NCBI GenBank assembly: GCA_965649765.1
Contig: OZ287749.1
Location: forward strand, 94,240,001-94,304,000
Origin: Bispira polyomma
Taxonomy: Eukaryota
Reading direction: 5' to 3'
Length of the DNA: 64,000 nt
The translations under genes and the position numbers were made by a program. The notes under the pieces are model-generated. The model had not been told where the DNA came from. It saw nothing but the letters and a program-made list of their open reading frames with translations, and ran no database searches. Positions 1-59,849 of the stretch are shown one piece after another. Within the stretch, counting starts at the first letter, position 1. Every line of letters starts with the position of its first letter.

Positions 1-732
1 TAAAATTATATTTGTGAGAAACATCAACCAATAGAGAAGGCGAAAAACATAAACTTCTTGGCAAAGGGAATGACAATATCTTACCAATTGTAAACACACA
101 AATTAATCTTTCTCTCTTACAAAAAAACATGTTAAGCTTAAAACTTAAAAATATGGGCCCAACTGTAACCTAATTCAATGTACAGACAGGCATTATAGAA
201 TATTTAAGATATAGGTCATGTGGTTCAAAAGGCAAATGTCTTGAATGTTACACAGACCAATAACTGCATGAAACAAAGACTTTTAGAACTTGACAAAGGA
301 CAAAATATCACAATAATACCTATTGCCAAGTGGAAGAGCATATTATATCAAACAAATCCTTCTGTCAACAGTCCCTTGAAATGCACAGATTCCAAATATA
401 GACTAAATAAAATACCACAAGTTTTCAAGTTTGAATGAATGAAATCAGACACAAACTTATTCATTTACAGGAAGACCAAAGGAACTTCCAATAGTAAATT
501 GGAGTATATGTGTTGTAGGATTAAACTATTGACAATGCTACATACGTACAATGTATAAATAAACACAGTAAAATTTCCCCACTTTTCCATACCATGTATC
601 TCAATGAGAGACTTCCTTCTTAAGTAACCAATCTGTGGACAACTAATAATGGTGGCCGTAAACTATTTTAGAACAGATACACGGTGATAATTTGTGAAAA
701 CTGATACAGAGGTGAAACACTTGCACAAAAGA

Positions 733-3636
733 ATGGGTTGCTGTATTTTACTGACCCTTTTAGTTCTGTGCTGTATGACTAAAGCATTTTCTGCTGCTAC
801 TGGTTCTACGAGAAGTAAAACCTATAATGTCTCCAGGGTAAAGAGACGCATCATAGACTGGGATTTACATAGCACACCAGATAAGAGAGCAACTCTGGAT
901 ATAAGCACATATTCAAATCAAGAAGACAATGATTACAACTGCCTACAGAATCAGGTTATCCCGCAGTGTCAACAAGTTTTGAATCATTGTTTTATTTGTA
1001 AAGAAGGCTTACCTATTGCTGGGGTTACTGCTGGTGAAACGGTCTGCTTTATCAGCAACAACACTGAACTCAATCGAATCTTCCAGGGCTTAAAGAAGAC
1101 TACGGAGCTCCTACAGCTAGTGATCCTAAATAAATGGAAAGGCTACTTGCCAGTTGAACCTTCACCAATAGACATCACTCGACTGGGAACATTCACAAAG
1201 TTGAAATCATTCAAGTTGGCACCCTGCGATGAGGATTACAAACAACCATACCCTATCAAGTTTACGAAGGACACATTCAGGTATTTACGCGATTTATCAT
1301 CATTGTCCATTAACATAGCCAGTGTTGACCAGTCCTTGGCCAATATTGTCTCACACTTGCACAACTTGAAGACACTGGATCTCTCCTTTACCAGAAAGCT
1401 CAGCATGGTCAACGTGATTGACACCATAAAAGCTGTGAATGCCACAAGTCTGCGCTCCCTGTATCTTCTAACATTTCAGTGTGCTGGATGCAATGGCTAC
1501 AACTTCAGTTTGCACATTCCCACCTTCTTCTCCAATACAAGATTCCCAGCATTGGAAGAGCTGGTCATCAGTGAAAACAGCTTGGCCCGCATTTATCCAG
1601 GAATTACCCGCATTGCTCCCAACCTGAGGTTCTTGGACATATCAGGGAATATTTTATTGGATGGACACAATGCTGCCTTTATTATAGAAGTTTTACTACA
1701 CCCTAGCATTAAAGTACTGGACATGGCATACCAGGGATATGTAGGCGGGGGGAAATTTAGTTATCTAAACCATCAAATCAGGCCTGATGACAACCACATT
1801 GGTGTCAGACAAACCAGAGACTTAAAGAAATCTTACACGTCCCCTGCTCTAGGCAAGAACCCAATCATTTCTAGATCAGACAGATATATGGTCAGCTGTG
1901 TTAACAGAATTACAGAGATGCATTCCAGCCCAAATATCAGTGCTCTATTTTCTAACTTTGCACAGCAAAACAAAAAGCTCTTCCACAATATACTAAAATG
2001 TCTGCTGCCAACAGTGTTTGCAGAGGGACCTCCGATTGATGTAATACCAGAACTGAGAGATATTGTCAATACAACTTGTGCACTCTACATCAATATTCCA
2101 CTATCTCCAAATTTAAAAACTCTTTACATGAACCAACTGCACTTGGAAGCAGCATCGATAACTGGTGTGGTAGTGGATCAAAATATATGCTTCAGGAAAA
2201 ATAACCTCACCAACTTTATCTTTACCGATAATGCATACTGGATTAAGGCTGCTAAAATAGAGGACTTGCTTTCAAGATCATCCATAAGTGGACTGAACAA
2301 ACTAGCAAGCATAGATTTATCCAACAATGATCTGTTGGTTAATTTCACACATTTCACCGAAAATCTGTATACTCCGAGTGTACAAAACTTTACCATTGCC
2401 CAAAATAATATTACTTTTGTTAGCGATTACCAAGTATGTGGTGGGCAGACAATTCTGCAGAGAGTAGACTTCAGTGGTAATAGTTTAGGTAAGAAGCCAA
2501 ACTTTCCGCACAAACTGGTAAGTGGATGTTACCATCTGATTGAACTGGATTTGTCAAATAATCATTTTAATAATTCTGAGGAGGCTTTTAGTATTCATAT
2601 GTCTGACCTTCAAAGACTTCAAATCCTAAACTTAAGCAATAACCACCTGACTACAATTGGGAAAGAAATGAGAAAAGCCATTGACGAAAGTGCAGAACTA
2701 TCGCAACATCTGACCATTGATCTCGACCACAATCCACTTGTGTGCAACTGTCAAACGCTACCATTTACAAAATGGATAACAAATCATGTGAAACAAAGAA
2801 GTTCTAAAGTAAAGTTTCACAGATACGACCATTACAAATGTCTTGATATTTATTCTAGAGTGAGAAAACTCAATACTATAACCCCAGAAAAAGTAGATAA
2901 GTTTGACCATCAATGTCATCCATCAAATGTTATTTCAAATATCAAGATTGTGAGTATTACACTGGCGTGTGTCCTGTTCGTGCTACTCGTATACACTCTG
3001 TACCGTAAACGCTGGAGGCTTCGCTACCTTCTATTTGTACTCAAGCAGAAAACTCAAAGACTTCTCTGGTCGACAGAAAAAACAACCCCTAAAGTATGGA
3101 AATATGATGCCTTTGTCTCTTACTGTTCAGACGACAGATTCTGGGTGCATGGAGAGTTTCGCAGAATACTGGAGCACACATACGGATTCCGCTTATGCTT
3201 ACGTTACCGGGATTTTGAGGTTGGAGACACCATTAGCAATGCCATTCTTGAGAGTATAAAGCAAAGTCGTGAGATCATTATCATCATCAGTGATGCTGCA
3301 CTGACGCATGAATGGAACCAGTTTGAGCTGGAGCACAGCAACCTTCAAAGTGGTCGCAGGAAGAAGAGGCTGATTATCGTCAAGATGGGCAAGCTGAAGC
3401 ATATTGCTGAGAATCCACTAGCGGCCAACCTACTAGACCTACACGGTTACACAGAATGGTCAGACCACAGAGATAGGGTTCCTGTCTTTTGGGACAGTCT
3501 CGTGAAACATCTGTATGGCAAAGCTCATACCGCGAACCATTGCTCATGTCACTGCTTTTGGAGATGCTGTCACAGACACCAGGGATATCAGCAAATCACA
3601 GACTCACAGGACAGAGACAGTAGTACAGAGGAATAA
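733..3636 (+). CDS. Toll-like receptor (signal peptide, LRR ectodomain, LRR-CT, TM helix, TIR domain), single coding exon, ~967 aa
   Basis: Open frame 694-3636 with first ATG at 733 followed by a hydrophobic signal (MGCCILLTLLVLCCMTKAFSA). Many LxxLxLSxN repeats (LKTLDLSF, LRFLDISGN, LIELDLSNN, LQILNLSNNHL). LRR-CT NPLVCNC...KC...C, TM IVSITLACVLFVLLVYTLY then RKRWRLRY. TIR boxes YDAFVSY, LCLRYRDFEVG and FWDSL. Confidence 0.95.
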   Translation: MGCCILLTLLVLCCMTKAFSAATGSTRSKTYNVSRVKRRIIDWDLHSTPDKRATLDISTYSNQEDNDYNCLQNQVIPQCQQVLNHCFICKEGLPIAGVTAGETVCFISNNTELNRIFQGLKKTTELLQLVILNKWKGYLPVEPSPIDITRLGTFTKLKSFKLAPCDEDYKQPYPIKFTKDTFRYLRDLSSLSINIASVDQSLANIVSHLHNLKTLDLSFTRKLSMVNVIDTIKAVNATSLRSLYLLTFQCAGCNGYNFSLHIPTFFSNTRFPALEELVISENSLARIYPGITRIAPNLRFLDISGNILLDGHNAAFIIEVLLHPSIKVLDMAYQGYVGGGKFSYLNHQIRPDDNHIGVRQTRDLKKSYTSPALGKNPIISRSDRYMVSCVNRITEMHSSPNISALFSNFAQQNKKLFHNILKCLLPTVFAEGPPIDVIPELRDIVNTTCALYINIPLSPNLKTLYMNQLHLEAASITGVVVDQNICFRKNNLTNFIFTDNAYWIKAAKIEDLLSRSSISGLNKLASIDLSNNDLLVNFTHFTENLYTPSVQNFTIAQNNITFVSDYQVCGGQTILQRVDFSGNSLGKKPNFPHKLVSGCYHLIELDLSNNHFNNSEEAFSIHMSDLQRLQILNLSNNHLTTIGKEMRKAIDESAELSQHLTIDLDHNPLVCNCQTLPFTKWITNHVKQRSSKVKFHRYDHYKCLDIYSRVRKLNTITPEKVDKFDHQCHPSNVISNIKIVSITLACVLFVLLVYTLYRKRWRLRYLLFVLKQKTQRLLWSTEKTTPKVWKYDAFVSYCSDDRFWVHGEFRRILEHTYGFRLCLRYRDFEVGDTISNAILESIKQSREIIIIISDAALTHEWNQFELEHSNLQSGRRKKRLIIVKMGKLKHIAENPLAANLLDLHGYTEWSDHRDRVPVFWDSLVKHLYGKAHTANHCSCHCFWRCCHRHQGYQQITDSQDRDSSTEE

Positions 3637-42031: not shown

Positions 42032-42361
42032 TATGGTGAAACCGGGGTTTGGCTTTTAGTACGAACCCCAACCGCAGAACCTCAAAGTGATATAAAAGGT
42101 CAACGGCAGTCTGGAATCGTGGTAGTTATCTTGAGAAGTTCAAACTAAAAGGAGCGCCATATTGGAAAAGCTTTATATTCGCAGCCTTTGCTGTTGGAAA
42201 TCAACAGTTGAGGCATTCTACAAATACAAGAGACTACACAGTTAGTTGACTGTGTATATAACAATGATTAGTGCCAGCTCTGTGAAGTGTTAACAGCACA
42301 AGCTTCAGGGCTGGAGCAATAACATAACAGCAGCTAGGTTAGTGCACAAGAGTTTACTTTA
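42032..42361 (+). repeat. 5' LTR
   Basis: TATGGTGAAACC...GAGTTTACTTTA, matches 49667-49996; TATAAAA at 42091-42097. Confidence 0.95.
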
Positions 42362-42362
42362 T

Positions 42363-42381
42363 TGGTACCAGAAGTGGGGTT
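42363..42381 (+). promoter_or_regulatory. Primer binding site, complementary to the tRNA-Leu(TAA) 3' end
   Basis: TGGTACCAGAAGTGGGGTT, 1 nt after the 5' LTR. It is the reverse complement of ...AACCCCACTTCTGGTA-CCA, as recalled for metazoan tRNA-Leu(UAA). Confidence 0.8.
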
Positions 42382-42390
42382 AAAGCCAAT

Positions 42391-45300
42391 TTGCCAGTGG
42401 ATTCTGAGATGATTATTGTGTCAAGTGGAGACAACAAGGGAGCTTTGCTACCAAATCTTCTAGTGAAATCTGCTGAATTTATTCCAGTGCAGCTAATAAA
42501 TGACACCGAGGAGCCAATTGTTCTACGTGGAGGTCATGTGTTGGGATATGCAGTAGAATGTGAACATGTGTTGAATGAGATAGAAGATAACATTTGGGTG
42601 AGGACACAGTGTCAGCAACAGCTTCCAGAGCATCTACAGGGTCTGTTCGAGAGATCTGTGAAAAAAACTGACTACTGATGAAGCTGAAAAAGTTAGGACA
42701 TTGCTGATTAATTATCAGGACATATTTTCCAAAGGAAGCCATGATTTGGGATGCTTTACTGAGATCAGACACACAATGGATACTGGAGAGGAAAGGCCTG
42801 TGAAGCAGTCCATGAGAAGAATGCCTTTAGGTTTTGAAAACGAAGAGGAGGAAAACCTTAAGCTGATGTTAGACATTGGTGTTATAACAGAGTCATCATC
42901 AGACTGGGCATCTGCTCCAGTACTAGTGAGAAAGAAGGATGGAACAGTTAGATATTGTGTGGATTTTAGAGCGCTCAACTCAAAAACAGTAAAAGATTTG
43001 TTTCCGTGACCTTCGATTTCTCAGTGTATAGACCAACTAGCAGGAAATATGTATTTTTCGACTCTCGACATGGCTAGCGGCTATTGGCAAATTGAAATAG
43101 ATGAAAAGGACAGGCATAGAACTGCATTTATCACTAAATTCGGTTTGTTCGAACATAGGCGGATGGCCTTTGGACTTTGCAACGCGCCGGCTACTTTTCA
43201 GCGTGTAATACAGTTTGTCATGCGTGGCTTGACATGGGATAAAATACTGGCCTACATTGATGATGTGATTATTTTAGGGAAAAACTTTGAGGATCACCTC
43301 GATAACCTCCATCTGACCTTCGAAAGGTTCCGAAAATACAACCTGAAACTAAAACCCAAAAAGTGCAGCTTGTATCATTCTGAAACATTATTTCTGTGAA
43401 AAGTTGTGAGTCCTGAGGGAGTATCAGTGAATCCTGAGAATATACAGAAAGTGCAATGTTGGCCAATACCAAAATCAGTTAAAGATGTGGAGAAATTCCT
43501 AGTTTTTCTGAACTACCACAGAGAACACATAAGAGATTATACAAAGCTCACATCAAAACTCTATCTATTGACTGGGCTACTTTTTATTGGGGGGAGGAAG
43601 AGCAGGAGACATTTGAAACATTAAAAGAAAAATTAGTGACTGCCCCCATTCTTGTATATCCGAATGCAGATGACGTTTTTGTGTTGGATACGGATGCTTC
43701 CAATCACTCCATCGGAGCGGTACTATCACAGGTACAAAATGAACAAGAAAAAGTCATTTGCTACGGAAGTTTTGTGCTTACCCCAGAACAAAGGAAGTAT
43801 TGTGTGACAAGAAAAGAACTATTGGCTGTGGTACGATTCACAAGACAGTTTAGACATTATCTGTTAGGACGGAAATTTCTACTAAGAACCGATCACAACA
43901 GTTTAACGTGGCTTCTACGGTTCAAATACATCGAGGGACAGTTAGCACGCTGGCTTGAGGAGCTGAGTCAGTTTGATATGACCGTTCTTCACCGTCCTGG
44001 TACAAAGCATGGGAATGCAGATGGATTATCCCGGATTCCGGATGATTATACATTTTGTGATTGCTACAAGGCTGGGCTAGATCCGTCACTGTTGCCATGT
44101 AAAGGTTGTAAATATTGCACCAGAGCCCATAATCAGTGGTCAAGGTTCAGTGAAGAAGTGGATGATGTGATCCCATTAGCTATGAGAACTATTAGTGTAG
44201 AAAAGCCTATGGAGCCGTCGAATACTTGGATCACCGGTTATACGTATGAGCAGTTACAGGATGCGCAAATATCCGACCCATGTTTGCAGAAATTAATAAG
44301 TTGGATCTCTAATGGCCTGGAGCCGGAACAAAAGGATTTATCCCTATGTAGTCCGGATGTAAAGTACTTTTACTGAAACAAGCACATTTAGTGTATAACA
44401 ATGGACTATTGTATTATCTGTGGAAAGATGAAGTAAGTGATTGGCCATTGCTTATGATTCCAACTAGTTTAAAAGAAAAGGTTATGTCACTTAACCATGA
44501 TATGCCTTTAACTGGTCATATGGGGATCACAAAGACAACAGCTCGCATAAGGAAATCGTATTTGTGGTACGGAATGACTGGAGATGTCGAGTTATTTGTG
44601 AAATCTTGCGGGGTTTGTAACAGAAACAAAAAGGCCAGTGTGAAGCCGAAAGCGCCATTGGGACAGTACCATGCTGGTTCACCTCTAGAACGGGTTCACA
44701 TTGACATTCTTGGACCATTTACACCAAGCGCTAGAGGTAATCAATATGTACTGGTAATTATGCACCAGTTTACCAAATGGTTGGAATGTTTTCCGCTGCC
44801 GCATCAAAGTGCTGAAGAAGTTTCCAGATGTGTAGTCGACGGATTCATTTCAAGATTCGGTTGCCCTTTAGACATACATACCGACCAGGGTAGAAACTTT
44901 GAAGGGAAGTTATTTGCGTCTGTGTGTGAACTGTTACAAGTTGCTAAAACCCGTACAACGCCCTATAGACCATGTTCAAATGAGAACGATACAATAGAAC
45001 AATCCTACAGTTAATTAGATGTTTTTTGAGTAGCAATCAACAAACGTGGGATGAGCATCTTCAACAGTTAGCTGGGGCTATTCGTTCTACAATAAACAGA
45101 AATATCGGTTTCACTCCTAATTTAATGATGCTGGGCAGGGAAGTTATGCTACCAGTAGATTTAATGATGGGAACAATTGACAATCGGTATGATAGTGCAG
45201 CAGAATATGTGGTTAAGCTAAAAAACATTTTAAAACAGGTGCATACATTGGGTAGGGAGACTTTGTTATCCTCACAAATGCGTCAGAAAAGGGACTATGA

Positions 45301-45841
45301 CTTACGACTTAAAGTGCACACCTACGAAGTTGGAGACCTGGTATACAAATTGGACTCGACAAAGAAGGTAGGTCAAAGTCCTAAGTTACAACGGATCTGG
45401 AAGGGTCCTCTGCTGGTGGTTAAAGTTATTTCTCCAATACTCTTTAAAGTGGCAGAGAAAAAGAAAACCTATGTCTTACATCATGATAGGTTAAAGCCCT
45501 GCAGGGACAGAGAGGTACCACTTTGGTTAAGGAGAAAAAGAAATAATTTGTTACAGAATTTAGCAGAGACTCAAGATGATTCTGATCCAGAATCTATTGG
45601 CCTGAACATTCTATTTGATGAGACCAATGTAATCGAAAGTAGTAATGAAGTTATTAACAGTGATACCATTGTAGATAATAACCAGGCTGAGATTCCAGAT
45701 AATGTAATTAATGTAGAAGATCCCTTATCCAATACGCATGAGGACCTAGTTAGTGATGCATGTATTTCAGGCCGATTACCACCTAGTAGTAGAGGACGAA
45801 AGCGGAAGCAGCCTGGTCATCTAGCAGATTACCTTACTTAA
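42391..45841 (+). pseudogene. pol: Gypsy pol (RT, RNase H, integrase) with at least 6 disruptions
   Basis: RT: WASAPVLVRKKDG, YCVDFRALN, FSTLDMASGYWQI, MAFGLCNAPATFQR, YIDD. RNase H: LDTDAS, RKELLA, RTDH, NADGLSR. Integrase: H..H..CGVC, VHIDILG, HTDQG, GPY-like WKGP. In-frame TGA at 43007 and 43397; frame changes near 42670, 43580, 44370 and 44980. Confidence 0.95.
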
Positions 45842-45960
45842 GAATCTGTTATGTAGCTTGTATGGTTCGGTTCAGGTGAAGGTTTAGTGTAAGTTACTAA
45901 AATGCTCTTGTAATCTAACTGTTTATTCATGTGGTGTTGTTTTGAAATGCCTTATTGCAG

Positions 45961-47031
45961 ATGCCGCGGGGAGAGTCTCCCTATGTAAGGGGTCGCCAGC
46001 GAGGGGGCTCCGGCCGGAGAGGTGTAGGTGGAAGAGGATGAGGTCAGAGCCGCGGACACGACGTCTCTGGTGGTTACAGGAGTGGAGGGTATCGCCCTTG
46101 GTACCGTCCGTATGGTAGGGGTTCACGCCCAGGTAGTGTCAACCCCCAGGTAAGAGGTAGAGGGCGAGGGAATCAGCCTGAACCAAGGGGGCCGCGGGCA
46201 GGTCATGACGTTCCCCAGGTAAGCCATGAGAGTGTGGGTCTCTGTCATGAGGAAGATGGGAGAGCACCTAGGCAGGTAAGCCATGCAAGTGTGGGTCTCC
46301 GTCATGAGGAAGATGAGAGAGCACCTAGGCAAGCAGGACAGGTAAGAGGGCAGGCTGGTTCAAACGTTCAGACAGGGCGGAAACAACAGCATAGTGAAAG
46401 GTCCTCTAACACTGGTCCTGGTAGTAGGTATGGTGGTAGGGGTCATTCCGGGAACCATGGGCAACCAAGTCGCACCAACTGGACCCATTGGAACAAAAAC
46501 ACAGGTGCTTCAAGGGCACCTGAAACCATACCTGTTGAAGTATCCTTAACATCGCCACAGTCGACCAGTAGGGAAGAAGATGAGGCAGTAATAAGTATGC
46601 TGACCCAGATATTTAGCCTGGTAAGACTAGAAGTGATTAAAACCAGAGTATTTCATCCTTCAAACAGGGTAGAACCCTTTAACCAGGCACTGCTGATGGA
46701 ACGATGTTTGAGAGACATTAGGATCCAAATGGGCAATCAAGCAGCCCCACCTTCATCTGCTTTGGGGACACCAACACCAAAGTACCAGGAACTCCCAAGT
46801 ACGTCGGCTACCCAGAGTAGGCAAATGCAACCAGCACCGGGACATACCTCAGGAGCTAGTGTGCAAACTAAAGCTGAGGGCAAAAGCAATGTGTCGCCAG
46901 GCAATGTCTATGGAGCGGCACAAGAGGATTCCGAGTTTCAAGCTGTGAAAAGGAAGTCCTATGCTCAGCAAGATAAGAAGGTATTCCCTACAACAAAGCC
47001 GCAAGATAAAACAATACAAAATGCGGGCTGA
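45961..47031 (+). pseudogene. N-terminal part of the accessory ORF (RG/RGG-rich, disordered), one in-frame TGA at 46039
   Basis: Acceptor-like TTGTTTTGAAATGCCTTATTGCAG immediately precedes ATG 45961. Reads MPRGESPYVRGRQRGGSGRRGVGGRG*GQSRG...RGRGRG in the same frame as ORF 46234-47031. Confidence 0.65.
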
Positions 47032-49213
47032 GGGAAAGTGGCAAGTCGTTGGGTCAAGGAAGAGGAATTTTAAACCTAAACCAGGGCCAAGCGAGCCTAA
47101 AAAGTCTAAACCCGAAGTTAGAAAAGGTGTGGGGAAGGATACAAGGCGAAGTGGCGAGTCGGATGTTGTCACAAACCGAGTTCAGCCTGTCAAGAGAAAG
47201 GGTCCCCCTTACGAAGAAACGCCTGATGGTCCCTCTTTCAAAAAGAAGAAAAGACCTGCATGTTTTATGAAGGGTTGTGGAAAACCTCAGGCGCACATGA
47301 GGAAACACGTCATAGGGAAGCACCTACCTGAGGGTTTTAATACCGCGAGGGAAATGACGGATGATAAAAGAATGGCATCGTTGGAAGGTTTCGTGATAAC
47401 CATTCAGAACCTGTTGGGATGTAGCAATTATGAGGAACTGCTTCAAAAAGTTCAAATGCAGAAGTTGTATCCAGATCCTAGTCGAGTGCACCTCGAGACA
47501 TCAGAGGACGACTATCGTCTAATGGATCATTTTCAACTCTGGCTGTCAGGAAGTCATTTAAAGTGCACTCCCAATCCTAGTCCACCAAATTGTATAGCCT
47601 CGCTTGTGCATTGGAGGGTTGCAGCCTGCATGATAAACCATGTAGGGGAAGACAAGGCACAGGCCAAAACTTCGAAAACTCCAAGTATTGAAGTCCGTAT
47701 TGGAGACGTGTCAGGTGCGACGGCTAAGACAGAAGATCCTTTGGAGGCAACTGTTGTAAAGAAGGTGGTAGAGCCAACCTCTCCAAGTAAAAGAAAGGTG
47801 GGACTAACTCGCAAGACAAAATCCATCCTGTCTAGAGTCCTAACACAATCTGTAGCAGAGGCTATAAAGCAAGCACGGCAAGGAGAACCAGGACCAAGTG
47901 CGTCAGCTGAGGCTGAGTCTAAGCTGATGGATACTGATGCACTAGTTGGTGAACTAAACGTGGCATTGGGTTTAACTGACAGCGAAACAGATGCAGAAGC
48001 AAAAGAAGCAAACTCTGCAGTAACCCAGATGGAGGTGACAGAAAAACCTGAGGCTGGGCCTAGTGACAGTGAAGCTGGGGCGTCCAAGTACAAGAAAGGT
48101 GAATCGTCCTTTGCAATGACTGCCACGGAGGTGTCAAGGCGGTATAAGGCTGGAGAATTAACACAGTCTCAGTTCTCCCAGATTATCTTCGTGAATGAGA
48201 AGGAGTCAGCATGGGAAGAAGCAAAGCCATCTTACAGTGAGATATTACAGAAGCCTTCAGCTGTGAAAGTAAAGCCACAACCTCAGATGAAAGACGTTGG
48301 GAAACCCTGTTCAGAGTTTAGTTGGGAGAAAAGGAGATCAACTTTGGGAACCTGTCCGGAGTCACGAAAGATACCATTTGTTGACTCACATATGCACATG
48401 GACAAGCTTAAGGAAATGACACGCATGACCAAATTGGACGACTTACTACGGGTGGGTCCTATGCCTGAAGTGCCTGTACGCTTGGAAGCTGCAGTAGCAA
48501 ACTTTTGTTTTGAAATACTAAGTCGTGAGGAGATCCTCGTGTTTAAGAGGGACAATCGGCTATCCTTTACCTATGGCGTGCACCCAAAGCTAGCAAGGTC
48601 TATTTCACCAAAAAAGCTGGAGATTGTAAAGTCTTCCATTGAAAAGGATCCTCGATGTGTCGGGATTGGTGAAATAGGAATGGAGTTTACCCATGGTTTT
48701 TCCAGGTGGCGTGAACATCAAGTCAAGTTGTTGCGAGAACTCCTTAATTTTTATGTCAAAAAACAGTGGTCAAAGGTGATAGTGATCCATTGTCGAGATT
48801 TCAGTAACTCGCAGGACGCCAGTGATTTGTGTTTGGCTGGAATGACAGATATAATTAAAGAAAAGGACAAAAAGCAAAAAGTGCATAGGCATTGTTATAA
48901 CGGGGGAATGAAGGAGATGAAAAAATGGCAGGAAAATTTTCCTGGGATACTGTTCGGATTCACCAGGTTATTACTGCGTGCATCACGACACCCTGAAGTA
49001 GATCAGGTAGTACAGGAACTGCCTTTGAAAAAGATACTCCTGGAAACAGATTCCCCGTATCTGCTAGCCCCAGAACATTATAGCTGCACCTACAACACTT
49101 GCTACGGGGTGGAGGTTATAGCAAGAAGGGTAGCGGAGTTAAAGCAGAGTACAGTGGAGGAGGTTCTCAGGGTTACTTCTGAGAATGCCAAAAAGCTGTA
49201 CTCGCTGAGGTAA
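47021..49213 (+). CDS. Retrotransposon-borne protein: NLS, C2H2-like Zn finger, low-complexity linker, C-terminal TatD-family nuclease (48377-49213)
   Basis: Uninterrupted 730-codon frame. FVDSHMH, YGVHP, VGIGEIG, VIVIHCR, VHRHCY, ILLETDSPYL and ARRVAELK...TSENAKKLY match the TatD pattern. CFMKGC-x9-H-x4-HLP at 47261-47329. Confidence 0.9.
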   Translation: MRAEGKWQVVGSRKRNFKPKPGPSEPKKSKPEVRKGVGKDTRRSGESDVVTNRVQPVKRKGPPYEETPDGPSFKKKKRPACFMKGCGKPQAHMRKHVIGKHLPEGFNTAREMTDDKRMASLEGFVITIQNLLGCSNYEELLQKVQMQKLYPDPSRVHLETSEDDYRLMDHFQLWLSGSHLKCTPNPSPPNCIASLVHWRVAACMINHVGEDKAQAKTSKTPSIEVRIGDVSGATAKTEDPLEATVVKKVVEPTSPSKRKVGLTRKTKSILSRVLTQSVAEAIKQARQGEPGPSASAEAESKLMDTDALVGELNVALGLTDSETDAEAKEANSAVTQMEVTEKPEAGPSDSEAGASKYKKGESSFAMTATEVSRRYKAGELTQSQFSQIIFVNEKESAWEEAKPSYSEILQKPSAVKVKPQPQMKDVGKPCSEFSWEKRRSTLGTCPESRKIPFVDSHMHMDKLKEMTRMTKLDDLLRVGPMPEVPVRLEAAVANFCFEILSREEILVFKRDNRLSFTYGVHPKLARSISPKKLEIVKSSIEKDPRCVGIGEIGMEFTHGFSRWREHQVKLLRELLNFYVKKQWSKVIVIHCRDFSNSQDASDLCLAGMTDIIKEKDKKQKVHRHCYNGGMKEMKKWQENFPGILFGFTRLLLRASRHPEVDQVVQELPLKKILLETDSPYLLAPEHYSCTYNTCYGVEVIARRVAELKQSTVEEVLRVTSENAKKLYSLR

Positions 49214-49654
49214 AGAGGCTATCTGTAGGGGGTAGGAAGTGGCACCGACGTAACAAGTACGGTACTGCGTTCTGGGCAACCAGGGTGATTAGCGATTACC
49301 TAGATAAAATCAGGGGGTATATTTGGTAAGGGTGGAGAATGTGTAACTTGCAGCCTAGAATATAGTGGATGAAGGTATGTAACCACCCAAGTAAAATCTA
49401 TGGACAACTATGGACAATTGTAAAGTATGAGCAGCTATTTTTATTTTTAAAAAAAGTAATCACCCTGGTAAAGATTATAACATCTATGGTCAGTATAAAG
49501 TAAAAAGTAAATTTAGATGAAGTTTATATCATCTATGAACATTGTAATAAAAGTAAATTTAGGTGGTTGCAATAACGTAAATATATGAACTTTAAAAGTA
49601 GTATTTCCAAGCAAAATAATGTAGAGTCCAGGAGCTGTCGAGGTGGCCTATCAT

Positions 49655-49666
49655 GAGGGGGAGAAG
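49655..49666 (+). promoter_or_regulatory. Polypurine tract
   Basis: GAGGGGGAGAAG directly abutting the TG of the 3' LTR. Confidence 0.9.
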
Positions 49667-49996
49667 TGTGGTGAAACCAGGGTTTGGCTTTTAGTACGAA
49701 CCCCAACCGCAGAGCCTCGAAGTGATATAAAAGGTCAAGGGCAGTCTGGAATCGTGGTAGTTATCTTGAGAAGTTCAAACTAAAAGGAGCGCCATATTGG
49801 AAAAGCTTTATATTCACAGCCTTTGCTGTTGGAAATCAACAGTTGAGACATTCTACAAATGCAAGAGACTACACAGTTAGTTGACTGTGTATATAACAGT
49901 GATTAGTGCCAGCTCTGTGAAGTGTTAACAGCACAAACTTCAGGGCTGGAGCAATAACATAACAGCGGCCAAGTTAGTGAACAAGAGTTTACTTTA
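49667..49996 (+). repeat. 3' LTR
   Basis: TGTGGTGAAACC...GAGTTTACTTTA, followed by the ATAT TSD. Confidence 0.95.
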
Positions 49997-51388
49997 ATAT
50001 TAATCTAATAAATTAAAATATTAATATTAAAATAAAGTTAACAGCTCGAACAGCAAAAATATAAGCAAGTAAGCATAAATAACAGAATGCATAACTTTTT
50101 TATCCCTCCTAGCTACCCTAACTTTAAAAATAATTAAAGGGTGGTCACCCGAAAAAAGGGTACCCATCTATGTCAAAGTGTGTCGACATTTAGTAGTCAT
50201 ATACTTTTGCTGTCTCAGGAAAAAAAGAAAAAGATTTGTAGATTATTGTGGGTTTATGCATAAGCTAATTGATATGTTTAAAGTACTGTGTATATTATGT
50301 TAATGTTTTGAAATGGTAAAATTTAACAACTAACACCTCCGTTTAAGTTTACTGTTTTGATAGAAGAATGGCGATAATACAAGATTTGTCGAAGTTGCAA
50401 ATGTGTTGTTGTGCCACTGTTCCAACGAGTTTTCTGTCATCGGCAGTGCCTTGAATTTGTAATGTACGCACAAGGGACAGACAATCTAGTGACATTACAG
50501 CCTATGACTGGTGACTAGGTCTGCATCCCCCCCCCCCCCCCCCGCCCCCACTTCTCTACAGAATGACTAACATGATATATTAAACCTAACAATATGCTGA
50601 ATACACCTTCACCAAAATATGGCACAAATTCACTATATGCACATGACAGCCCTACCATACTATATACAAATTATGGACCCATTTACAACGATTGAACTTA
50701 CTGCTTTGCAATAAACCAAAATATCTTTGCCAAATTGTAACTGCTACTTTAGGCATTATGGGCATAATGCCTCGTTAAAAACAAGTGATATTTTTACAAC
50801 TTTATGTTGTGTTTAGAAAATTGACAAAAAACCACCAATTTGCAAAGCAATGCCGTTACACCATCAAGTAAATAAGGCTAAACCACCAAGGTGCTAAACC
50901 TCATGTCTTCAGTAAAGTGGTGCAATGATGAAATCATTTTAATGGGCGTTTGATGACAAGACATATTGTAGTTTAATTAAATTACTACTTGATACTTAAG
51001 CCATGATCGGGTCTGTATGTTTCACGGCAATATTCGTTGACATCTTATTTAACCTCTCACAAACTCAGATACCTAAAAAGTTAAAGTAGAAAATTGGCTA
51101 TTAAGTTTAAATCTTTTAACCAGAAGTGCCCAAGTTTAAATATTTTTTTGTTCACATAATTATTCTGTTTTGTGTGTGTAGTGTATCATACCCTGCTTTA
51201 GTTGTAATCCAGCTTGCAAGAATCATAGCTTGGGAGTGTTAGTTGTATAGAGTTCACTTTTGATCTTTAACCCATTATTTAGGGTCACAGGAATACTGGG
51301 CCTTGTGGGTAACACACTCGCTTAGGATTGCAGAGTACCTGGGTTCAATCCCAGTTTGGGGCTCCTAGGTACGATGCATAGTGGTCTG

Positions 51389-51480
51389 GGACGGTATTCA
51401 CTAAAGGTCTTAACTTAGTCTTAACTTTAAGATTTTAGTCCTAACTAAGTTAAGACGAAGATCTTTAGTGAATACCGCCC
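51389..51480. mobile_element. 92-bp hairpin MITE with CTG TSD, inserted in a tRNA-headed SINE (~51297-51590)
   Basis: CTG|GGGACGGTATTCACTAAAG...CTTTAGTGAATACCGCCC|CTG; tRNA-like head with GGTTCAATCCC upstream. Confidence 0.7.
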
Positions 51481-51759
51481 CTGGTATTGGGCTCTAACCG
51501 AAGTAGGGAGGTTAATCAATGTTAAATGCTCATCCTCAGGCCTCTTGCTTCAGTTGCAAGAAGTGGTTGGAATATAAGTTTTATAAACTAGTAGACACAA
51601 ATTCAATTTAAAACAATTAGAAAAATATTGTGGGACAGGAAATGGGTATATACAATTGAACACTTGTGATGTAAAGTTTTAAATTTGTATTAATATCTCC
51701 ATTTTTACAAGGTTTCCATATTGTCTTTCAGCAGATTCAGCTACAATAACAAAAACAAA

Positions 51760-54700
51760 ATGAAGAGTGCAGTTTCTAAAGGCATGCCATCTACCCACGT
51801 CAGTTTTAAAATATGGACTGCAAATAAAGATATGACGAAGAAGCCTCGTCTCCTTGTTAAAGAGATGGAAGATACATTTAAAGCATCAGCGAACAAAGTT
51901 AAGGCAGAGCAGATGAAAAAGTATATGAGAAATCAGTTTGAGTTCTTTGGTGTTACTGCACCAGAAAGAAGAAGTTTGAGCAAGAAGGTGATCTTAAATA
52001 CACAGTAAAACCTCTGATATCCAAACACATTAGGCAAGCCAATATTTTCTTTAGATAATTAAAAGGTCAGAAAATTTTAAAATAAAACAACAGTAACATT
52101 GAAGGCATAGAAATGGTTTCACAAAATGGAATATTCAGAATTAAAAGTTCAGCTAATAAAAATTTTGTGTGGCAAGTGAAATCTCTTTTTTCACACCAGT
52201 CATTTATGATTGTCAAAAGATTGTGGTTCCCTAAGTCAGGGGTTACCAGTCAGAAGGCCACCTTAATTGCCATCTTTTATTAACCAACATTTACAATCAC
52301 TAGTCCAGCGTATATTTTATTAATAAAGAATTAATCACTGTACCTACTCACTGAATAGTTAACTATTCCTGGCCACGTCATTTGATTTTTTTTTTATTTA
52401 TGTGGCATTTTTCCCCCTATAATTTCAATTGATTAAATGGCTATATGAATACATGATGGCGATGTAACAATATATTGCCTCAGAAACAATAATTTAACAT
52501 AATAATAACATTTTATAAATGGCTGTATCTATGAATACATCACATGCATGATGGCGATATAACTATACATGTACTAATTCAAAAACAATAATGTAAAATA
52601 ATACTATAATTTTTAGTGAAATGTTAAAGACAATTAAATTGTTAATCAAGGTGGCATTTTGGGGTGGCGTTCTTGTTTGGTGGCATTCGGACAGTATTTT
52701 AAGTCAGGATGCTGAAGTGGGTACGCATCTTCCTCATCCAGACTAAGAGCTAGAGTATTTTTTGCACACACTAAGTTTGTGTTTTCACAAGTATTGGTTA
52801 GGGGATACAGAGGTGCAGCACAAAGGTCTGACCTCACTTTGGTCATGTTAGTTTTGACATTGACCTTAAAAATATTGTCCAGTCGATTTCTTGGAAATGA
52901 CTAGTTACAGGAAGTTGGCTTATAAGGTTTAGAACTTTATATACATTCAAATTAAAAGAAATTTCATAAAATACTTTGGGGTGTCATAATCAAAATCATT
53001 GAAAATATTTGTAATTTATTTCATAACCAAAATGTTTTTAAATATTTTATAAAGTCCTTCCATCTGAAAAGAGTAGTTAGTTTACAACAAATGTGCTTAT
53101 TTATTTAAAAAAAATTCAGATTATGGAAAAATAATGATCACAATGTATTGGCGAGATTTATGTTGGCACCTTGTGTATATCTGCGTTAAAGCTTAATTGT
53201 AGTTTTTCTCTGTGTCTCACAGTTTATGACTGCAGCCTTGTCCCAAGGTGAACTGTACGCATTGGCTGCCATCTGCTGGGAGAAAACACAGAGAGAGTTT
53301 CAATTGTTTGGTTATGAGCTTCTAGAAAAAAGGTTTGCTAAAGGTTCAGAGATGTCCTCTAAATGGAAATTGTGTATTCTTATATTAGAGGCATAGACAT
53401 TACTCTATCTTTACTATTTTACAACTTTTCTTTACATTATTGTCCTCAATAAATAGTCTGTTAAAATTTGTTAAAACAGCTTATACAGTAACATTTCATC
53501 TGCCACTGTGGTCTAGTGGGTAAGACACTGGCTTAGGAACTCGGAGGACCTCAGTTCGATTCAAGCCTGGGCCGACCAGGTCCAGTCAGATACATAGTGG
53601 CCTGGTTGACCACCTTAAAATGGCGGTCCTCTGTCACTGAGTCCTTGCCTCGAAAAATTACATTGGTTTCTGAAATTCATTATAGAATTCTGTTTAAAAT
53701 CCAAGTCACGACTTTCAAAGCTGTTGTCACAAGGGCTGGATCTAGAGCTTTCTTAATCTCTGTCCCAATGTTATGGAATAGTATCCCAGTTGAGCTTAGA
53801 TCACTTACACCCCTCTCCCCTTAGTTCCCTCCCTGTACACCCCACATCCTTCCTTATTGCCTGGCTTTGTTTTTGGGACTTCTCGATTGGCTTACTGATT
53901 CTGTTGTTGCTCTTTAGAAGATGCCATCCATCAATAAGGTGCGTTAAAAATATAAAACCATATGCACTTACTAATAATTAATGATGGATAATTAATGATA
54001 AATTCTCTCTTAGTTAGCACGTCTTCCTTCACTATTGAAGCAAATGACATTGTTTTTACTTCTCTTTTATAGGCCAGAGTTATTGCTGCCCAGGAGTGCT
54101 CAGTATGATCCTATGGAGTTAGTGAAGGCCTTGGTAGTGACCAAAAGCTGGTGGGATACTGTTGACATGTTGGCCTGCAAAGGTGAGGGCTGCTTAAAGG
54201 GTTTATTGAAAATTAGAGAAAAAAAAGTGTAGAATGACTTTACCACTTTCAAGTCTATTAAAATGTTGCGTAGGTGTCTTATAACATTGGTATTACATAC
54301 ATTTCAGAGCACTTCTTTTTCACCAAAAAACCATAAACACACTTAAGTACATTGTCCAAGGGTGCAAGCACCAGGCATCAAACCTAGGGCCCCCTGTCTT
54401 AAACTCAAGCACTCTACCCACAAGGCCACAGAGACCACAAATGATAAAGTTTCTGTTATCCCAGAAAAAAATTGCTCTTCCAACCTATATCGATAATTAA
54501 GGGGCTAGAGTGTAAAGTTTCCCAACCAGACACTATAGTGAAAATAGACTGTTAATATGTGCAGAAATTCAGGGTTGGCGCTAGGATTTTTTAAAGTGGG
54601 GTTTTGGGGACCCCACCTCTCATAAAAAGTGGGGTCCCGGAGTAGCTTCCATGCATCTGATAGATAATTTTCATTTTTGTGACAAATATAATTTAAAAAT

Positions 54701-57049
54701 AATGAAATATATACTATTGTATTTCCACACTTATCAAACAACAGAATATAATAACATAGAATATGAAAATTTAAGTCAAACACTGTGAATTAAAAAAAGT
54801 TGGGCAATTTTCGTATTACCTAGGCCCTAACAGAATTTTGACTTTTAGAAACTACCCATTCAAAACGCCACGACCGGAAACACCAAATCAAAACATCAAG
54901 ATCTGCCATTTTTGCTAGATTGCTAGAAACTGTGATTAAACTTCAAAATATAGAAAAATTAAAAAGGGAAAATGGTGATTTCTTACTTTCAAATAAAGTC
55001 TGCATCCTAATGGACGCATTGTATGTTTTAATTTGCGTCCGCTGACGAAAATTCCGCGTTTTTAGATACTCGGGATTCCGTAAGCGCGAACCCTGAGAAA
55101 TATCACATAATATCCAGTATCACAGTATTGAGGTTTAGTGTGATCTGTAAGGTGTATTTTGTTAAGACTAACATTTAAAAATATACACACATATTCTTGT
55201 GCCTTGGATTTGCATGGTTGGGAATTTGTAATCTTTCTGCTTGAAGTTCTACTGTAAATACAGTAAAAACTCTATTATCCAAACGTATGTCCGAATGTTC
55301 AATTTCATTAAAATTTTTAGAAATGTCTATTTTTAAGTGATTCTGTCTTTGTCTCCAACCTCAGAATGACCACAAAGATCTTAGTGTACATGCTCACTGT
55401 CTTTCCTCAGTCCAGACTTTGATGGATCACTTTAAATCAAAATAAGTCCTAACAAAACTTAATTCAGTAGCAACAAAGATAATGAGGACTTAAGATCATT
55501 AATCCCAATTGTACTCCTGGGTAAATATATATTATCTTCTATTAACATCAAAAACCTTGGTGTTACTTTTGACTGCTGTCTCACTTGATATGCACAGCTG
55601 CAACATTTGTCGCTCCTGGAACTATGACAAAAGAATAAGAAATTGCTTGTCGCTGGATACTGCAATTACTTTGGCTAACTCCCTTTTGTTTTGGGTAATA
55701 AAGTCTTACATAAACAAGTTAGAGTCCATTCAAAAGTATCTATGTGTTCCTCCTTCCTTGCTACTCATCTTTCCTTCAGCCACTTTAGAGGGGAAAGAGA
55801 CTTTACCCCTCCTTGTTCTGTTGATGTAGTTCTGGGCCATCTGGCAGTAGCAGACAAAGATCATACCCTGTCAGTGCTAGAAGACTGGATCCACAGTGGG
55901 AACATGTGGCTCAAACGCTGTGCAATACTTTACCAATTGAGTTACAAGAAGAAAACCGACCAGCAGAAACTCTTCAGGTGTGTTTGTGTTGGCACATTAC
56001 GGTACTGTGATATTGGCATGTGAAGGACATATTGGTTAGGTGTGTTTGTGTTGGCACATTACGGTGCTGTGACATTTGTATATGAACGACAAATTTTAAT
56101 TATTGGTGCTTGTTCTCTGAAAAGGAAGTGTCCACATATTAGCATTAGTAGTCATCAGTAGGCAATGGTGCATTCATGGGCCAAGAAAGAATTGATTAAA
56201 TTTTAAAGCGGATTCAGGTACAAAAGTGAATCCAGGAATTGTTATCCTACCGCTCAACTAAGTTCCCTTTTAATTTTACATTTTGTGAATTATCTATGAT
56301 ACGGACTACATCTTTGCTCTCACAAGGTTTTTAGCTGATGACAGAAGAGAGCTTGAAGTGCTCTAAATGTATGTTGTCTCAAGGTGTGGGGGGGCCACGG
56401 TAGCCTACTGGTTAGCAAGCATTGCGCTTCACAATCACTGGTCTCTCACCTCTGTTATCAGCTGGCATGGGTTCGACTCCTGTCGATGCTTATGTAGGAA
56501 GGTGGTAGTTCCTTACCATGGGCCGCTGGTTTCAGTTCAGAACCTTGATCAACTGTATGCAGTGTTTTCTCCAGCGTTTCCAACTACCCGTCCCAATATA
56601 ACCTAAACAGGTACTAGAGTGGACGTTCAATATCCCAATTCAAAAGTCTCAAGGTGTGTAGATGATAATAGGAGCTTTAACTGATAAATATATGTTGTCT
56701 CAAGGTGTGTAAATGATAATAGTAGCTTTAACTGCTATAAATATATGTTGTCTCAACATGTGTAGATGATAAGAGCTTTGAGTACTATAAATTTATGCTC
56801 CCTCAAGATGTGTAGCGGATAAGAGTGAGCTTCGCGGGTATCAATTATAGTTCTCTATATTACTCTATATATTTCAGGTACTGCCTCCTCTGCTGCTCTC
56901 ATAAAGACTTCTTTATACAGAAAGCTATCGGTTGGGCTTTAAGGGAATATGCCAAAACCAGTCCCAAAGAAGTGCAGAAATTTGTGAATGCAAACAAGAA
57001 GAAACTGGCCCCATTAAGTGTCAGAGAGGCTTTGAAACATTTCAAATAA
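51760..57049 (+). CDS. alkD: AlkD-like DNA alkylation repair glycosylase (HEAT-like repeat family), 5 coding exons, 255 aa: 51760-51987, 53223-53332, 54073-54182, 55830-55977, 56878-57049
   Basis: All introns are GT-AG with compatible phases (0, 2, 1, 2); total 768 nt. Motifs KAEQMKKYMRNQFEFFGVTAPERR, CWEKTQREFQ, VTKSWWDTVD, WIHSGNMWLKRCAILYQLSYK, FFIQKAIGWALREYAKT and LAPLSVREALKH are colinear with Bacillus cereus AlkD as recalled. Confidence 0.93.
53665..53985 (+). mobile_element. LINE 3' fragment in alkD-like intron 2, preceded by a tRNA-like SINE head (~53505-53580)
   Basis: IHYRILFKI...GSRAFLISVPMLWNSIPVELR, then a TAA-rich tail. Confidence 0.6.
54570..55095. mobile_element. hAT-like non-autonomous element; longer copy lacking the left TIR at 57541-58252
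   Basis: CAGGGTTGGCGCT...AGCGCGAACCCTG termini. About 240 bp is near-identical to 57541-57743 and further blocks match 58056-58252. TSD is not clean. Confidence 0.7.
56330..56830. repeat. ~52-bp degenerate tandem repeat interrupted by a SINE
   Basis: TATATGTTGTCTCAAGGTGTGTAGATGATAATAGGAGCTTTAACTGATAAA-like units on both sides of the SINE. Confidence 0.7.
56389..56645 (+). mobile_element. tRNA-derived SINE (same family as 19723-19971), 13-bp TSD
   Basis: High identity to the 19723 copy; TSD GTCTCAAGGTGTG (56376-56388 and 56646-56658). Confidence 0.85.
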
Positions 57050-59849
57050 TACAGACAAAGATACAGTAAAAACATAATGATAAATTGCCACAACATTGTA
57101 TTGTATTGGAATTTATACTACAGTTATCTGCTTTTATCTGGTATTCAAATGGGTCAAGCAACCCTTTGTTAATTACTCAAGTACAACCAACCCGCCCTCG
57201 ACTGAAAAGTGACTTACTTGCGAGTGGTGAAGGTTGGTCCAGTAGTGTCATGTACCATATCTTGCAGCATATTTTGTTGCTGTTTTAATAACTAGGATAG
57301 TGTTCCAGAGAATTGCATTTAAAATATTTATCAATAATATCTGTCAATATCAGGGATGAAGATTGTGTACAAAGTTCATAGAATTGTATATCTAAGTTAA
57401 TCTAATGATATGTATTTGCATATTTTTTGTTCTATTTAAACTGCTCTATATCTTGACATATAGATGTTGTATCAAACATAATGTACTCTTATAAGTGGAT
57501 ATAAATTTAAGATTTAAAAAATATTTTAAAAGGGGTAAATTAGGATTTTTTAAAGTGGGGTTTTGGGGACCCCACCTCTCATAAAAAGTGGGGTCCCGGA
57601 GTAGCTTCCATGCATCTGATAGATAAATTTTCATTTTTGTGACAAATATAATTTAAAAATAATAAAATATATACTACTGTATTTCTACACTTGTCAAACA
57701 ACAGAATATAATAACATAGAATATGAAAATTTAAGTCAAACACTACAAATTAAATATTGATACTTCTACATCCAAATTTTTAATTTAAAATCAAACAAAC
57801 CAATGCTAGCCATGAGATATAAAAATTTAAGTCAAACACTACAAATTTGATATCTCTACATCCAAATATATAATTTAATACCGAACAAACAAATGTTACC
57901 CATGAAATTGTACTAAATATCTAACAAATAAGCTGTAGCTTAAAAAAAATAAAATGTGTCTCAGTGGTGTAATTGGATAAAACAAGTCGATTGTGAAGCC
58001 TTATTGACCATTAAGTTACATAATTATAATACGAAATAAAGTTTAGGAACTTGAACTGTGAATTAAAAAAAGTTGGGCAATTTTCGTATCACCCAGGCCC
58101 TAACAGAATTCCGAGTTTTAGAAACTACCCATTTAAAACGCCACGACCGGAATAACCAAATCGAAACATCGAGATCTGCCATTTTTTCTAGAATTTCTTT
58201 TCGGGAAAATTCCGCGTTTTTAGATATTCGGACGCCGTAAGCGCGAACCCTGTTTTCTGCCATCTAAAATTTTCACTATTGTTTTTACATGTATCTGCAA
58301 TACAGTAAAACCTCTATTATATAATCTTCTGTTGTCCGAATATTCAATATACAAACCACTTTTAAGTAGAACTCTGTAAAGTCAATTTTCCCTTTATGCG
58401 AGGAAAAATATGTAGTCCCCACAAAGGCATTTTCTTTTGAAAATCAACCCTAACCAATGAAAATCCTGCTTAAACAAAGCCATTTGTCCTGGTCCTAGGA
58501 GGCTTGACTTAAAGGTGTTTAACTGTATAAACTCATTTTCACTCATCCAAGTATAAACTCATTTTCACTCGTCCAAATTTAGATTTCATTTTGTTATATA
58601 CTAAAATCCCTCTTCTATTTTATAACCCAAATCTTGTTCTCCCAGCATGTTTGGATGATAGAGGTTTTGTTTGATGTAATATGCCTTGTAGTAAGCAGTT
58701 GTTCCGTATGACCTGTGATATGCACATATCTAACATATTTACAAGAACCATATTTTTAAAAGAATCAATAGGAGAATAAAATGAGTACAATAAGTAGAAT
58801 CACAGAAAACCAACATTCTTGTTCAAATTTCTCTTCTGTAAATACTTCATTTTATGTACAAATATATGAATATCTAAGATTGTCATTTTCCTGTTAGTGC
58901 AATACTTAAATTCAACATGCAGTAAGTGCTGCTTCTTCAGCTGTTTAACCCAAAAATATTTTCACTGTGAGATAGTAAGGTTTAAAGATTTGTACTTGAA
59001 GCAAATAAATACTTGACCTGCTAAACACCTCTGTGGTCTGTGCAAGCCTGCTGGTTGAGTGGAGAAAAACAATGAAGAGTTAAACAATATTTCTAAAGTG
59101 TGAGAGGTACTAGATTTCTACTCTCAAAAGTATTCTTTGAAAATCAGTCCGGGGCCTTTTTAGAACATGACCAACTGTGCCGAAGCTCCTATTTTGTCCA
59201 AGTGCATATAATTCATAATGTAGTCGAATGATTTTCTGAGCATGAATACATTCTAAAATTAGAATTCAACTTGTCAGAAAATTAAAATTTGGAAGACTAC
59301 TTATGAAATAGTTATTTCATAAACGCTTTATTTTTATTGTAAAATATTTGTTGTGCCTTGTATGTTTTGGAATATTATGATAAAATATCTCTTTTTGTAC
59401 TAATATACTTTGTTGTATTATGTAAGCTAAAGTGCAATAAAATTAATTCTTGTGTCTTTGATTTTCTGTTTAAGACAAGTAAATGGCTCCAGCATTTCTG
59501 TTCAATGATACATTCTTGCCGGGGCATAAAAACAGCTAAAGACAAAGTCACCCCAATCATAATAGAATTCAAAGTGGCAATTACCCCTTTCTTGATTGTA
59601 CAAGTACAACCAATCAGCAGTAGCAACAGTCATTCCCCTGACTGAAGAGAGACGTCAAGAAGACACCATTTTTCAATGTCCTCCAGGTTCTCCACAGCTG
59701 TAACCAAATAACGTCTTAGAAATTTTCTTTTTGTTTTATTTGTACTCTATGTACAAGACAGGCGTTCCTTTGAAAATAATCAGGCTTCTAACTGTGTCTG
59801 TTTCTCAGCTGTAGAAGGTTGAATCTCTTTACAGGCGATATGTTTAACG

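Follow-up and report, generated by a model that had tools for sequence, protein, structure and literature searches.

Results

An intron-containing AlkD gene on the plus strand

The stretch analysed in this study, hereafter the window, comprises 64,000 nucleotides (nt) of contig OZ287749.1 from Bispira polyomma. Between positions 51760 and 57049 it harbors a gene for a homologue of AlkD, the alkylpurine DNA glycosylase of Bacillus cereus. The five-exon animal AlkD gene is real; its splice junctions are predicted as follows, together with an acceptor-like element upstream of the start codon.

51720..51740, plus strand: pyrimidine tract resembling a splice acceptor; its three in-phase AGs (51730-51740) precede the ATG by 19-28 nt
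51760..51987, plus strand: coding exon 1; basic tail (amino acids 1-30) and helices with Y55/M56 (Y27/M28 in B. cereus AlkD)
51988..53222, plus strand: intron 1, phase 0; aligned position also in locus L001 and, judged by read-through gene calls, apparently in Asterias
53223..53332, plus strand: coding exon 2; an alternative 3′ boundary at 53343 is open
53333..54072, plus strand: intron 2, phase 2; in neither locus L001 nor locus L002; high-copy repeats at ~53500-54010
54073..54182, plus strand: coding exon 3; W140, D141, D144 (W109, D110, D113)
54183..55829, plus strand: intron 3, phase 1; position common to L001 and the sponge-like L002 and apparently to the Amphimedon-like P0261
55830..55977, plus strand: coding exon 4; W176, R179, L186 (W145, R148, L155)
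55978..56877, plus strand: intron 4, phase 2; position also in L001; very high-copy repeat resembling a short interspersed element (SINE) at ~56391-56645
56878..57049, plus strand: coding exon 5; F210, F211, W218, R221 (F179, F180, W187, R190) and the stop codon

In agreement with the initial annotation, which had described five exons with canonical splice sites, all four introns are of the GT-AG type (phases 0/2/1/2) and the joined exons form an intact open frame of 255 amino acids (aa). As many as 105 open GT-AG combinations retain the motifs of the protein, so that the boundaries are not settled by openness alone. For introns 1, 3 and 4 they are fixed by L001, an animal-type gene described below, whose intron boundaries correspond exactly. 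The boundaries of intron 2 were placed by splice-site quality only, and on that ground the 255-aa protein is preferred to a 257-aa variant that is also open (donor after 53343, acceptor before 54078).

Intron 4 contains two tandem structures. At its start, a duplication at 55976-56095 (58 nt, 88% alike, spacing 62) copies the exon-4 donor site, and the copy is a possible alternative donor. A ~51-nt minisatellite at 56350-56812 reaches the exon-5 acceptor and encloses the SINE-like repeat.

Relationship to B. cereus AlkD

All five exons matched the Pfam family PF08713 (DNA_alkylation) in colinear order over profile positions 2-213. Their E-values were, from exon 1 to exon 5, 1e-8, 0.06, 0.003, 1.5e-9 and 1e-19, and three of the five pass the gathering cut-off singly. 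When exons 1, 3, 4 and 5 were compared with solved structures, B. cereus AlkD (PDB 3BVS, 3JXZ, 5CL3) was the best match for each of them, and AlkD2 structures (PDB 6M9M, 4X8Q) were matched by none. From these matches, a HEAT-like solenoid is the predicted fold of the window protein. Exon 1 aligns with B. cereus AlkD without a gap over residues 4-47, including Y27/M28, and we take the N-terminal helix with these two residues to be a mark of canonical AlkD rather than AlkD2. The latter has the HEAT-like superfamily in common with the window protein but is remote, as an animal homologue used as query gave E 0.006 for AlkD2 and E 1e-40 for AlkD. YtkR2 and C10R5 from Streptomyces belong to the same superfamily and are set apart by their description, in which the two proteins are only 19-25% identical to AlkD (PMC8626424).

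The key motifs are located at residues 55, 138, 176 and 210 of the window protein. Y27/M28 of B. cereus AlkD correspond to Y55/M56, W109/D110/D113 to W140/D141/D144, W145/R148 to W176/R179, L155 to L186, F179/F180 to F210/F211 and W187/R190 to W218/R221; all of these residues are identical in both proteins, as is K194. W109, D113 and R148 of AlkD were reported to be essential by mutagenesis (PMC1874660). According to a second report, the catalytic triad is formed by W109, D113 and W187 and the adduct shelf by Y27, M28, W109, D110, L155 and W187 (PMC8626424). The triad, the D113-R148 pair and the shelf are all retained in the window protein. The alignment to solved AlkD and the PF08713 matches thus substantiate the family assignment made initially, including the claim of intact equivalents of Y27, W109, D113, R148 and W187. 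Moreover, the nine residues Y, W, W, D, D, W, R, W and R at the AlkD sites do not vary among the animal-type rows of our alignment (25 of 25). Differences from the B. cereus counterpart lie in the predicted splicing of the window gene and in ~28 additional N-terminal residues, mostly the basic tail.

The gene is part of the host genome

Read depth was determined in three public DNA runs from one study, representing at most two samples. The AlkD exon bins were near single-copy depth in all three runs (~90-140 in run X1), and read contigs span the exon-intron borders of AlkD with no other letters. Introns 2, 3 and 4 contain repeats with a summed depth of 4.6e4 to 6.9e6, i.e. hundreds to tens of thousands times the exon depth. 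The high-copy repeat of intron 3 (~54580-55100) has a second copy at ~57540-58250. Single-copy exons, uninterrupted border contigs and introns filled with host repeats demonstrate that the AlkD gene is host DNA. Bacterial contamination, which the initial annotation had already dismissed, is excluded by the same three observations. The repeat insertions that it had described in the introns were recovered as high-copy sequences in introns 2-4; in intron 1, the depth in the DNA runs revealed no very high-copy repeat of this sort. Their names as SINE, long interspersed element (LINE) and miniature inverted-repeat transposable element (MITE) were given by eye and are putative.

Positions 51388-51481, which fall into a high-copy bin some 280 nt upstream of the AlkD start codon, can form a hairpin with 24-nt arms that are 92% complementary. 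It is probably a small inverted-repeat element. A microRNA (miRNA) was considered as well, as an Rfam search over positions 50000-59000 returned two sub-threshold miRNA-like matches to this same hairpin; these were taken as chance matches and the candidate was rejected.

Intron positions shared with other animal AlkD genes

Metagenome contigs were scanned for a conserved motif and, downstream of it, a phase-1 donor at the position of window intron 3, which yielded two loci, L001 and L002. L001 is a complete animal-type AlkD gene with four coding exons and three introns, and all three introns coincide with introns 1, 3 and 4 of the window gene in alignment column and phase. As intron 3 was the search criterion, the two remaining introns of L001 were free to differ, and both of them match. 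By chance, such a match would occur with a probability of 1.3e-5 for uniform sites, or of 0.005 should only 5% of the sites be usable. L002, whose product is 68% identical to that of the sponge Halichondria, has intron 3.

Further gene calls were found without the pattern. P0375 and P0376 track the Asterias protein over 86 aa; at the intron-1 position they depart from it with Val-Ser, followed by a stop. P0261, which is 82% like Amphimedon, has an in-frame insert beginning with Gly-Lys at the intron-3 position. The introns of these three gene calls were deduced from protein read-through and not from DNA. Taken together, the matches in L001, L002, P0375/P0376 and P0261 indicate one intron-bearing ancestral gene. 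Intron 3 would accordingly be as old as animals, and introns 1 and 4 would be bilaterian or later, with intron 1 apparently common to a deuterostome as represented by the Asterias-like gene calls. Intron 2 is likely a gain specific to the lineage of the window.

Five sponge- or Trichoplax-like gene calls (P0394, P0395, P0399, P0410 and P0449), of either genomic or transcript source, are unbroken at the intron-4 position. Intron 4 may thus have arisen later than intron 3.

Distribution in animals and phylogenetic placement

A search with a chiton homologue gave 2635 matches, and among the best 120 of them 29 bear animal names, which represent nine phyla. The animal groups among the matches listed are sponges, Trichoplax, Nematostella, molluscs, annelids, Lingula, Saccoglossus, echinoderms and amphioxus. 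A profile search of a representative library, from which 20 clusters were looked up, added nine further animals, Capsaspora and a dinoflagellate; nine clusters were without an organism. No vertebrate or ecdysozoan AlkD occurred among the named matches within the best 120 of 2635, which is not an independent test of absence. An ESM Atlas search with an AlkD homologue returned bacterial AlkD clusters only. A search for short proteins gave mostly bacterial fragments, and 36 of 123 had a best match not labelled as prokaryotic, several of these being probably bacterial themselves.

A metazoan AlkD clade was reported in 2018 by Hecox-Lea and Mark Welch (Fig. 4 in PMC6264785), who did not identify the protein in vertebrates or ecdysozoans. 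The list of operational taxonomic units (OTUs) in that report contains ten non-rotifer animals, a host range as found here, as well as AlkD homologues from Salpingoeca, amoebozoans, ciliates, green algae and Naegleria; we found in it no intron comparison, residue check or function for the metazoan clade. Bdelloid AlkD was described there as lying outside the metazoan clade and as having been acquired separately from bacteria. Like the window gene, the AlkD gene of the bdelloid Adineta vaga resides in an animal genome, but it is intronless (gene span equal to the coding sequence, 753 nt), whereas the window gene has four introns, three of which are common to other animals. Our searches of the open-access literature yielded the bdelloid paper as the only one on animal AlkD, and none in which the function of the enzyme from a non-rotifer animal was studied. 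Our gene is a new member of this animal lineage known since 2018, from which it differs by one additional intron and by its divergent protein, which is at most 50% identical to any relative in our protein set. The rarity in animals implied by the initial annotation is countered by the homologues in nine animal phyla and Capsaspora and by the clade in print.

When the window protein was compared with our protein set by BLASTP, the best eight matches were all animal or animal-type. For tree reconstruction with IQ-TREE, a mixture model was applied to 78 rows and 226 columns. In the quick run, the window protein fell into a starred group of 26 rows composed of bilaterians and Trichoplax. In the careful run, it stood beside a scallop protein and another animal-type protein (85/91), within a group of 44 rows (94/88) that comprises the window, 37 other animal or animal-like rows and six others. 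The protein tree leans weakly to animal orthology without showing it.

The basic N-terminal tail and a putative upstream exon

The first 25 residues of the window protein contain no Arg, four Lys and one acidic residue and have a hydrophobic moment of 0.33, and the tail ends with KKPR. Ahead of the core, a K/R-rich, acid-poor tail is present in the window protein and in 23 of the 24 named animal proteins listed, the Nematostella model being the exception, and is absent from all four bacterial controls. Mitochondrial presequences are Arg-rich, acid-free and amphipathic. Evaluated by composition and hydrophobic moment only, the window tail does not conform to this pattern, having no Arg, one acidic residue and a modest moment. 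A role in nuclear import or DNA binding is likely a better fit for it than that of a mitochondrial presequence. Hence, the N-terminal extension noted initially is present, and its suggested role as an organellar signal is weakened by the missing Arg, the KKPR end and the family-wide occurrence of the tail.

An organellar enzyme might also arise in another way, namely by a mitochondrial presequence on an upstream exon combined with dual targeting. An acceptor-like AG lies 3n+1 nt ahead of the first ATG in all three genomic loci (window, L001 and L002), with an open frame in the window, which suggests a further upstream exon. Furthermore, 11 of 39 animal-type proteins have at least eight residues before the conserved Met-Pro start, with 8% Arg compared to a background of 4.6%. 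On the other hand, no convincing upstream coding exon was found in 49900-51690, the upstream extensions may be gene-caller artefacts, and their depletion of acidic residues is slight (4.2% versus 5.3%). Given the Arg-free visible tail and its low moment, we consider a mitochondrial enzyme, whether targeted by this tail or by an upstream exon, to be unlikely.

Neighboring features

A Gypsy-type long terminal repeat (LTR) retroelement with a broken pol occupies positions 42034-49968 on the plus strand. Its LTRs of 300 nt are 97% alike, and its 3′ LTR region is at ~10x single-copy depth. An open frame of 754 aa (46949-49213), located between the integrase and the 3′ LTR, ends in a TatD DNase domain (PF01026, E 1.9e-38). 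A literature search on TatD and Gypsy retrotransposons returned one unrelated match only. At positions 691-3636 of the plus strand, the window contains a single-exon Toll-like receptor gene with an open frame of 981 aa and leucine-rich repeat (LRR) and Toll/interleukin-1 receptor (TIR) domains.

Discussion

We are largely confident that the window contains an intact single-copy, five-exon animal AlkD gene, which most likely descended vertically from the common ancestor of animals and whose product is likely a nuclear glycosylase for cationic alkylpurines. The patchy range of the gene would then result from loss in vertebrates and ecdysozoans. Patchy retention had been one of two histories proposed in the initial annotation and is supported by the range across nine animal phyla.

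Several observations weigh against this reading. The identity of the window protein to named animals (40-48%; median 44, n=25) is barely above that to the prokaryote rows (32-48%; median 41, n=30). In a FastTree of 227 rows, the window protein fell outside the animal group (support 0.28), a placement that is outweighed by the shared introns. The group of 44 rows in the careful IQ-TREE run also includes Capsaspora, a dinoflagellate, two unplaced rows and two long prokaryote-labelled rows. It is unstarred, its bootstrap had not settled, and an exclusive animal clade was present in 0% of 200 bootstrap trees. In an approximately unbiased (AU) test, in which the window was grouped with 28 of the 30 prokaryote-labelled rows and set against the 25 named animals plus L001 with the remaining rows free, the position of the window on the prokaryote side was not rejected (p 0.41). 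The intron comparison is based on just two genomic loci, and in L002 the one free intron mismatches and introns 1 and 2 are absent. Finally, three positions contacting the adduct or the DNA are unlike those of B. cereus AlkD (Q38 to T, T39 to A, K156 to S).

The other history proposed initially was a horizontal acquisition special to this lineage. The animal would have taken up a bacterial alkD independently, as bdelloids did (PMC6264785), and then gained four introns. The FastTree placement and the AU test are compatible with such an event, and so are the long end branch of the window protein (0.74) and its C-terminal motif, which is that of B. cereus AlkD and differs in many animals. However, it requires that three introns were gained independently, each matching an intron of other animals in position and phase, and the window protein is among animals in both IQ-TREE runs. 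The comparison of intron positions across animals, suggested as a check in the initial annotation, speaks against a lineage-specific transfer, as introns 1, 3 and 4 are common to other animals. Homologues in nine phyla and Capsaspora, the shared introns and the published clade largely amount to the broad animal clade that is at odds with such a transfer. The shared introns have already largely refuted it, and we regard it as very improbable.

Vertical descent within animals leaves room for a much older transfer, in which a bacterial alkD entered the single-celled ancestor of animals (holozoan or earlier) and subsequently acquired the introns and the basic tail. Such an event is compatible with the history favored here for animals, from which it departs solely in where the gene ultimately came from. 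The AlkD family is mainly prokaryotic, the identity between animal and bacterial proteins amounts to 40-48%, and the tree shows eukaryote-like rows in scattered positions (eight to nine changes for ten rows). Yet the homologues in Capsaspora, Salpingoeca, amoebozoans, ciliates, green algae and Naegleria equally fit a presence in early eukaryotes followed by losses, and the careful IQ-TREE run did not resolve a donor clade. An ancient transfer thus is a serious candidate to which we assign slightly less than an even chance.

By analogy to B. cereus AlkD, the HEAT-like solenoid would hold the DNA's minor groove without base flipping. W140, D144 and W218 (W109, D113 and W187) would touch the damaged nucleotide, and R179 (R148) would pair with the aspartate. 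The Trp-Asp-Trp triad is expected to act on N3- and N7-alkylpurines by hydrolysing their labile glycosidic bond, with bulky minor-groove adducts as possible further substrates, and the resulting abasic site would be passed to base-excision repair of the host. The K/R-rich tail likely provides nuclear import or DNA binding.

Removal of bulky adducts by the window enzyme is possible because the shelf residues Y27, M28, W109, D110, L155 and W187 are all retained. On this basis, the gene might be kept chiefly as a defence against bulky alkylating genotoxins of microbial origin, as are YtkR2 and C10R5 in Streptomyces. According to PMC8626424, however, canonical AlkD confers poor protection against yatakemycin owing to product inhibition, whereas YtkR2 and C10R5 have a low product affinity, an extended loop between helices I and J and fewer DNA-binding residues. 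A dedicated anti-genotoxin role is therefore the less likely reading. Since the window protein resembles canonical AlkD, from which the Streptomyces enzymes are far removed in sequence, and since retention over nine phyla suits a housekeeping role, we deem it quite improbable.

A more far-reaching and decidedly speculative idea is that early animals had a second, non-base-flipping arm of alkylation repair that was lost in vertebrates, insects and nematodes. It might have comprised a nuclear form starting at the conserved basic tail and a mitochondrial form starting in an upstream exon. If true, this arm persists in sponges, cnidarians, molluscs, annelids, echinoderms and amphioxus, where bulky minor-groove adducts would be removable by base excision.

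In summary, the structure of the window gene adds evidence that places AlkD in the ancestral repair kit of animals, from which it was lost in the usual model animals. AlkD thus would not be a bacterial stray in animal genomes, and an enzyme assay would fill a gap in our understanding of how invertebrates repair alkylation damage.

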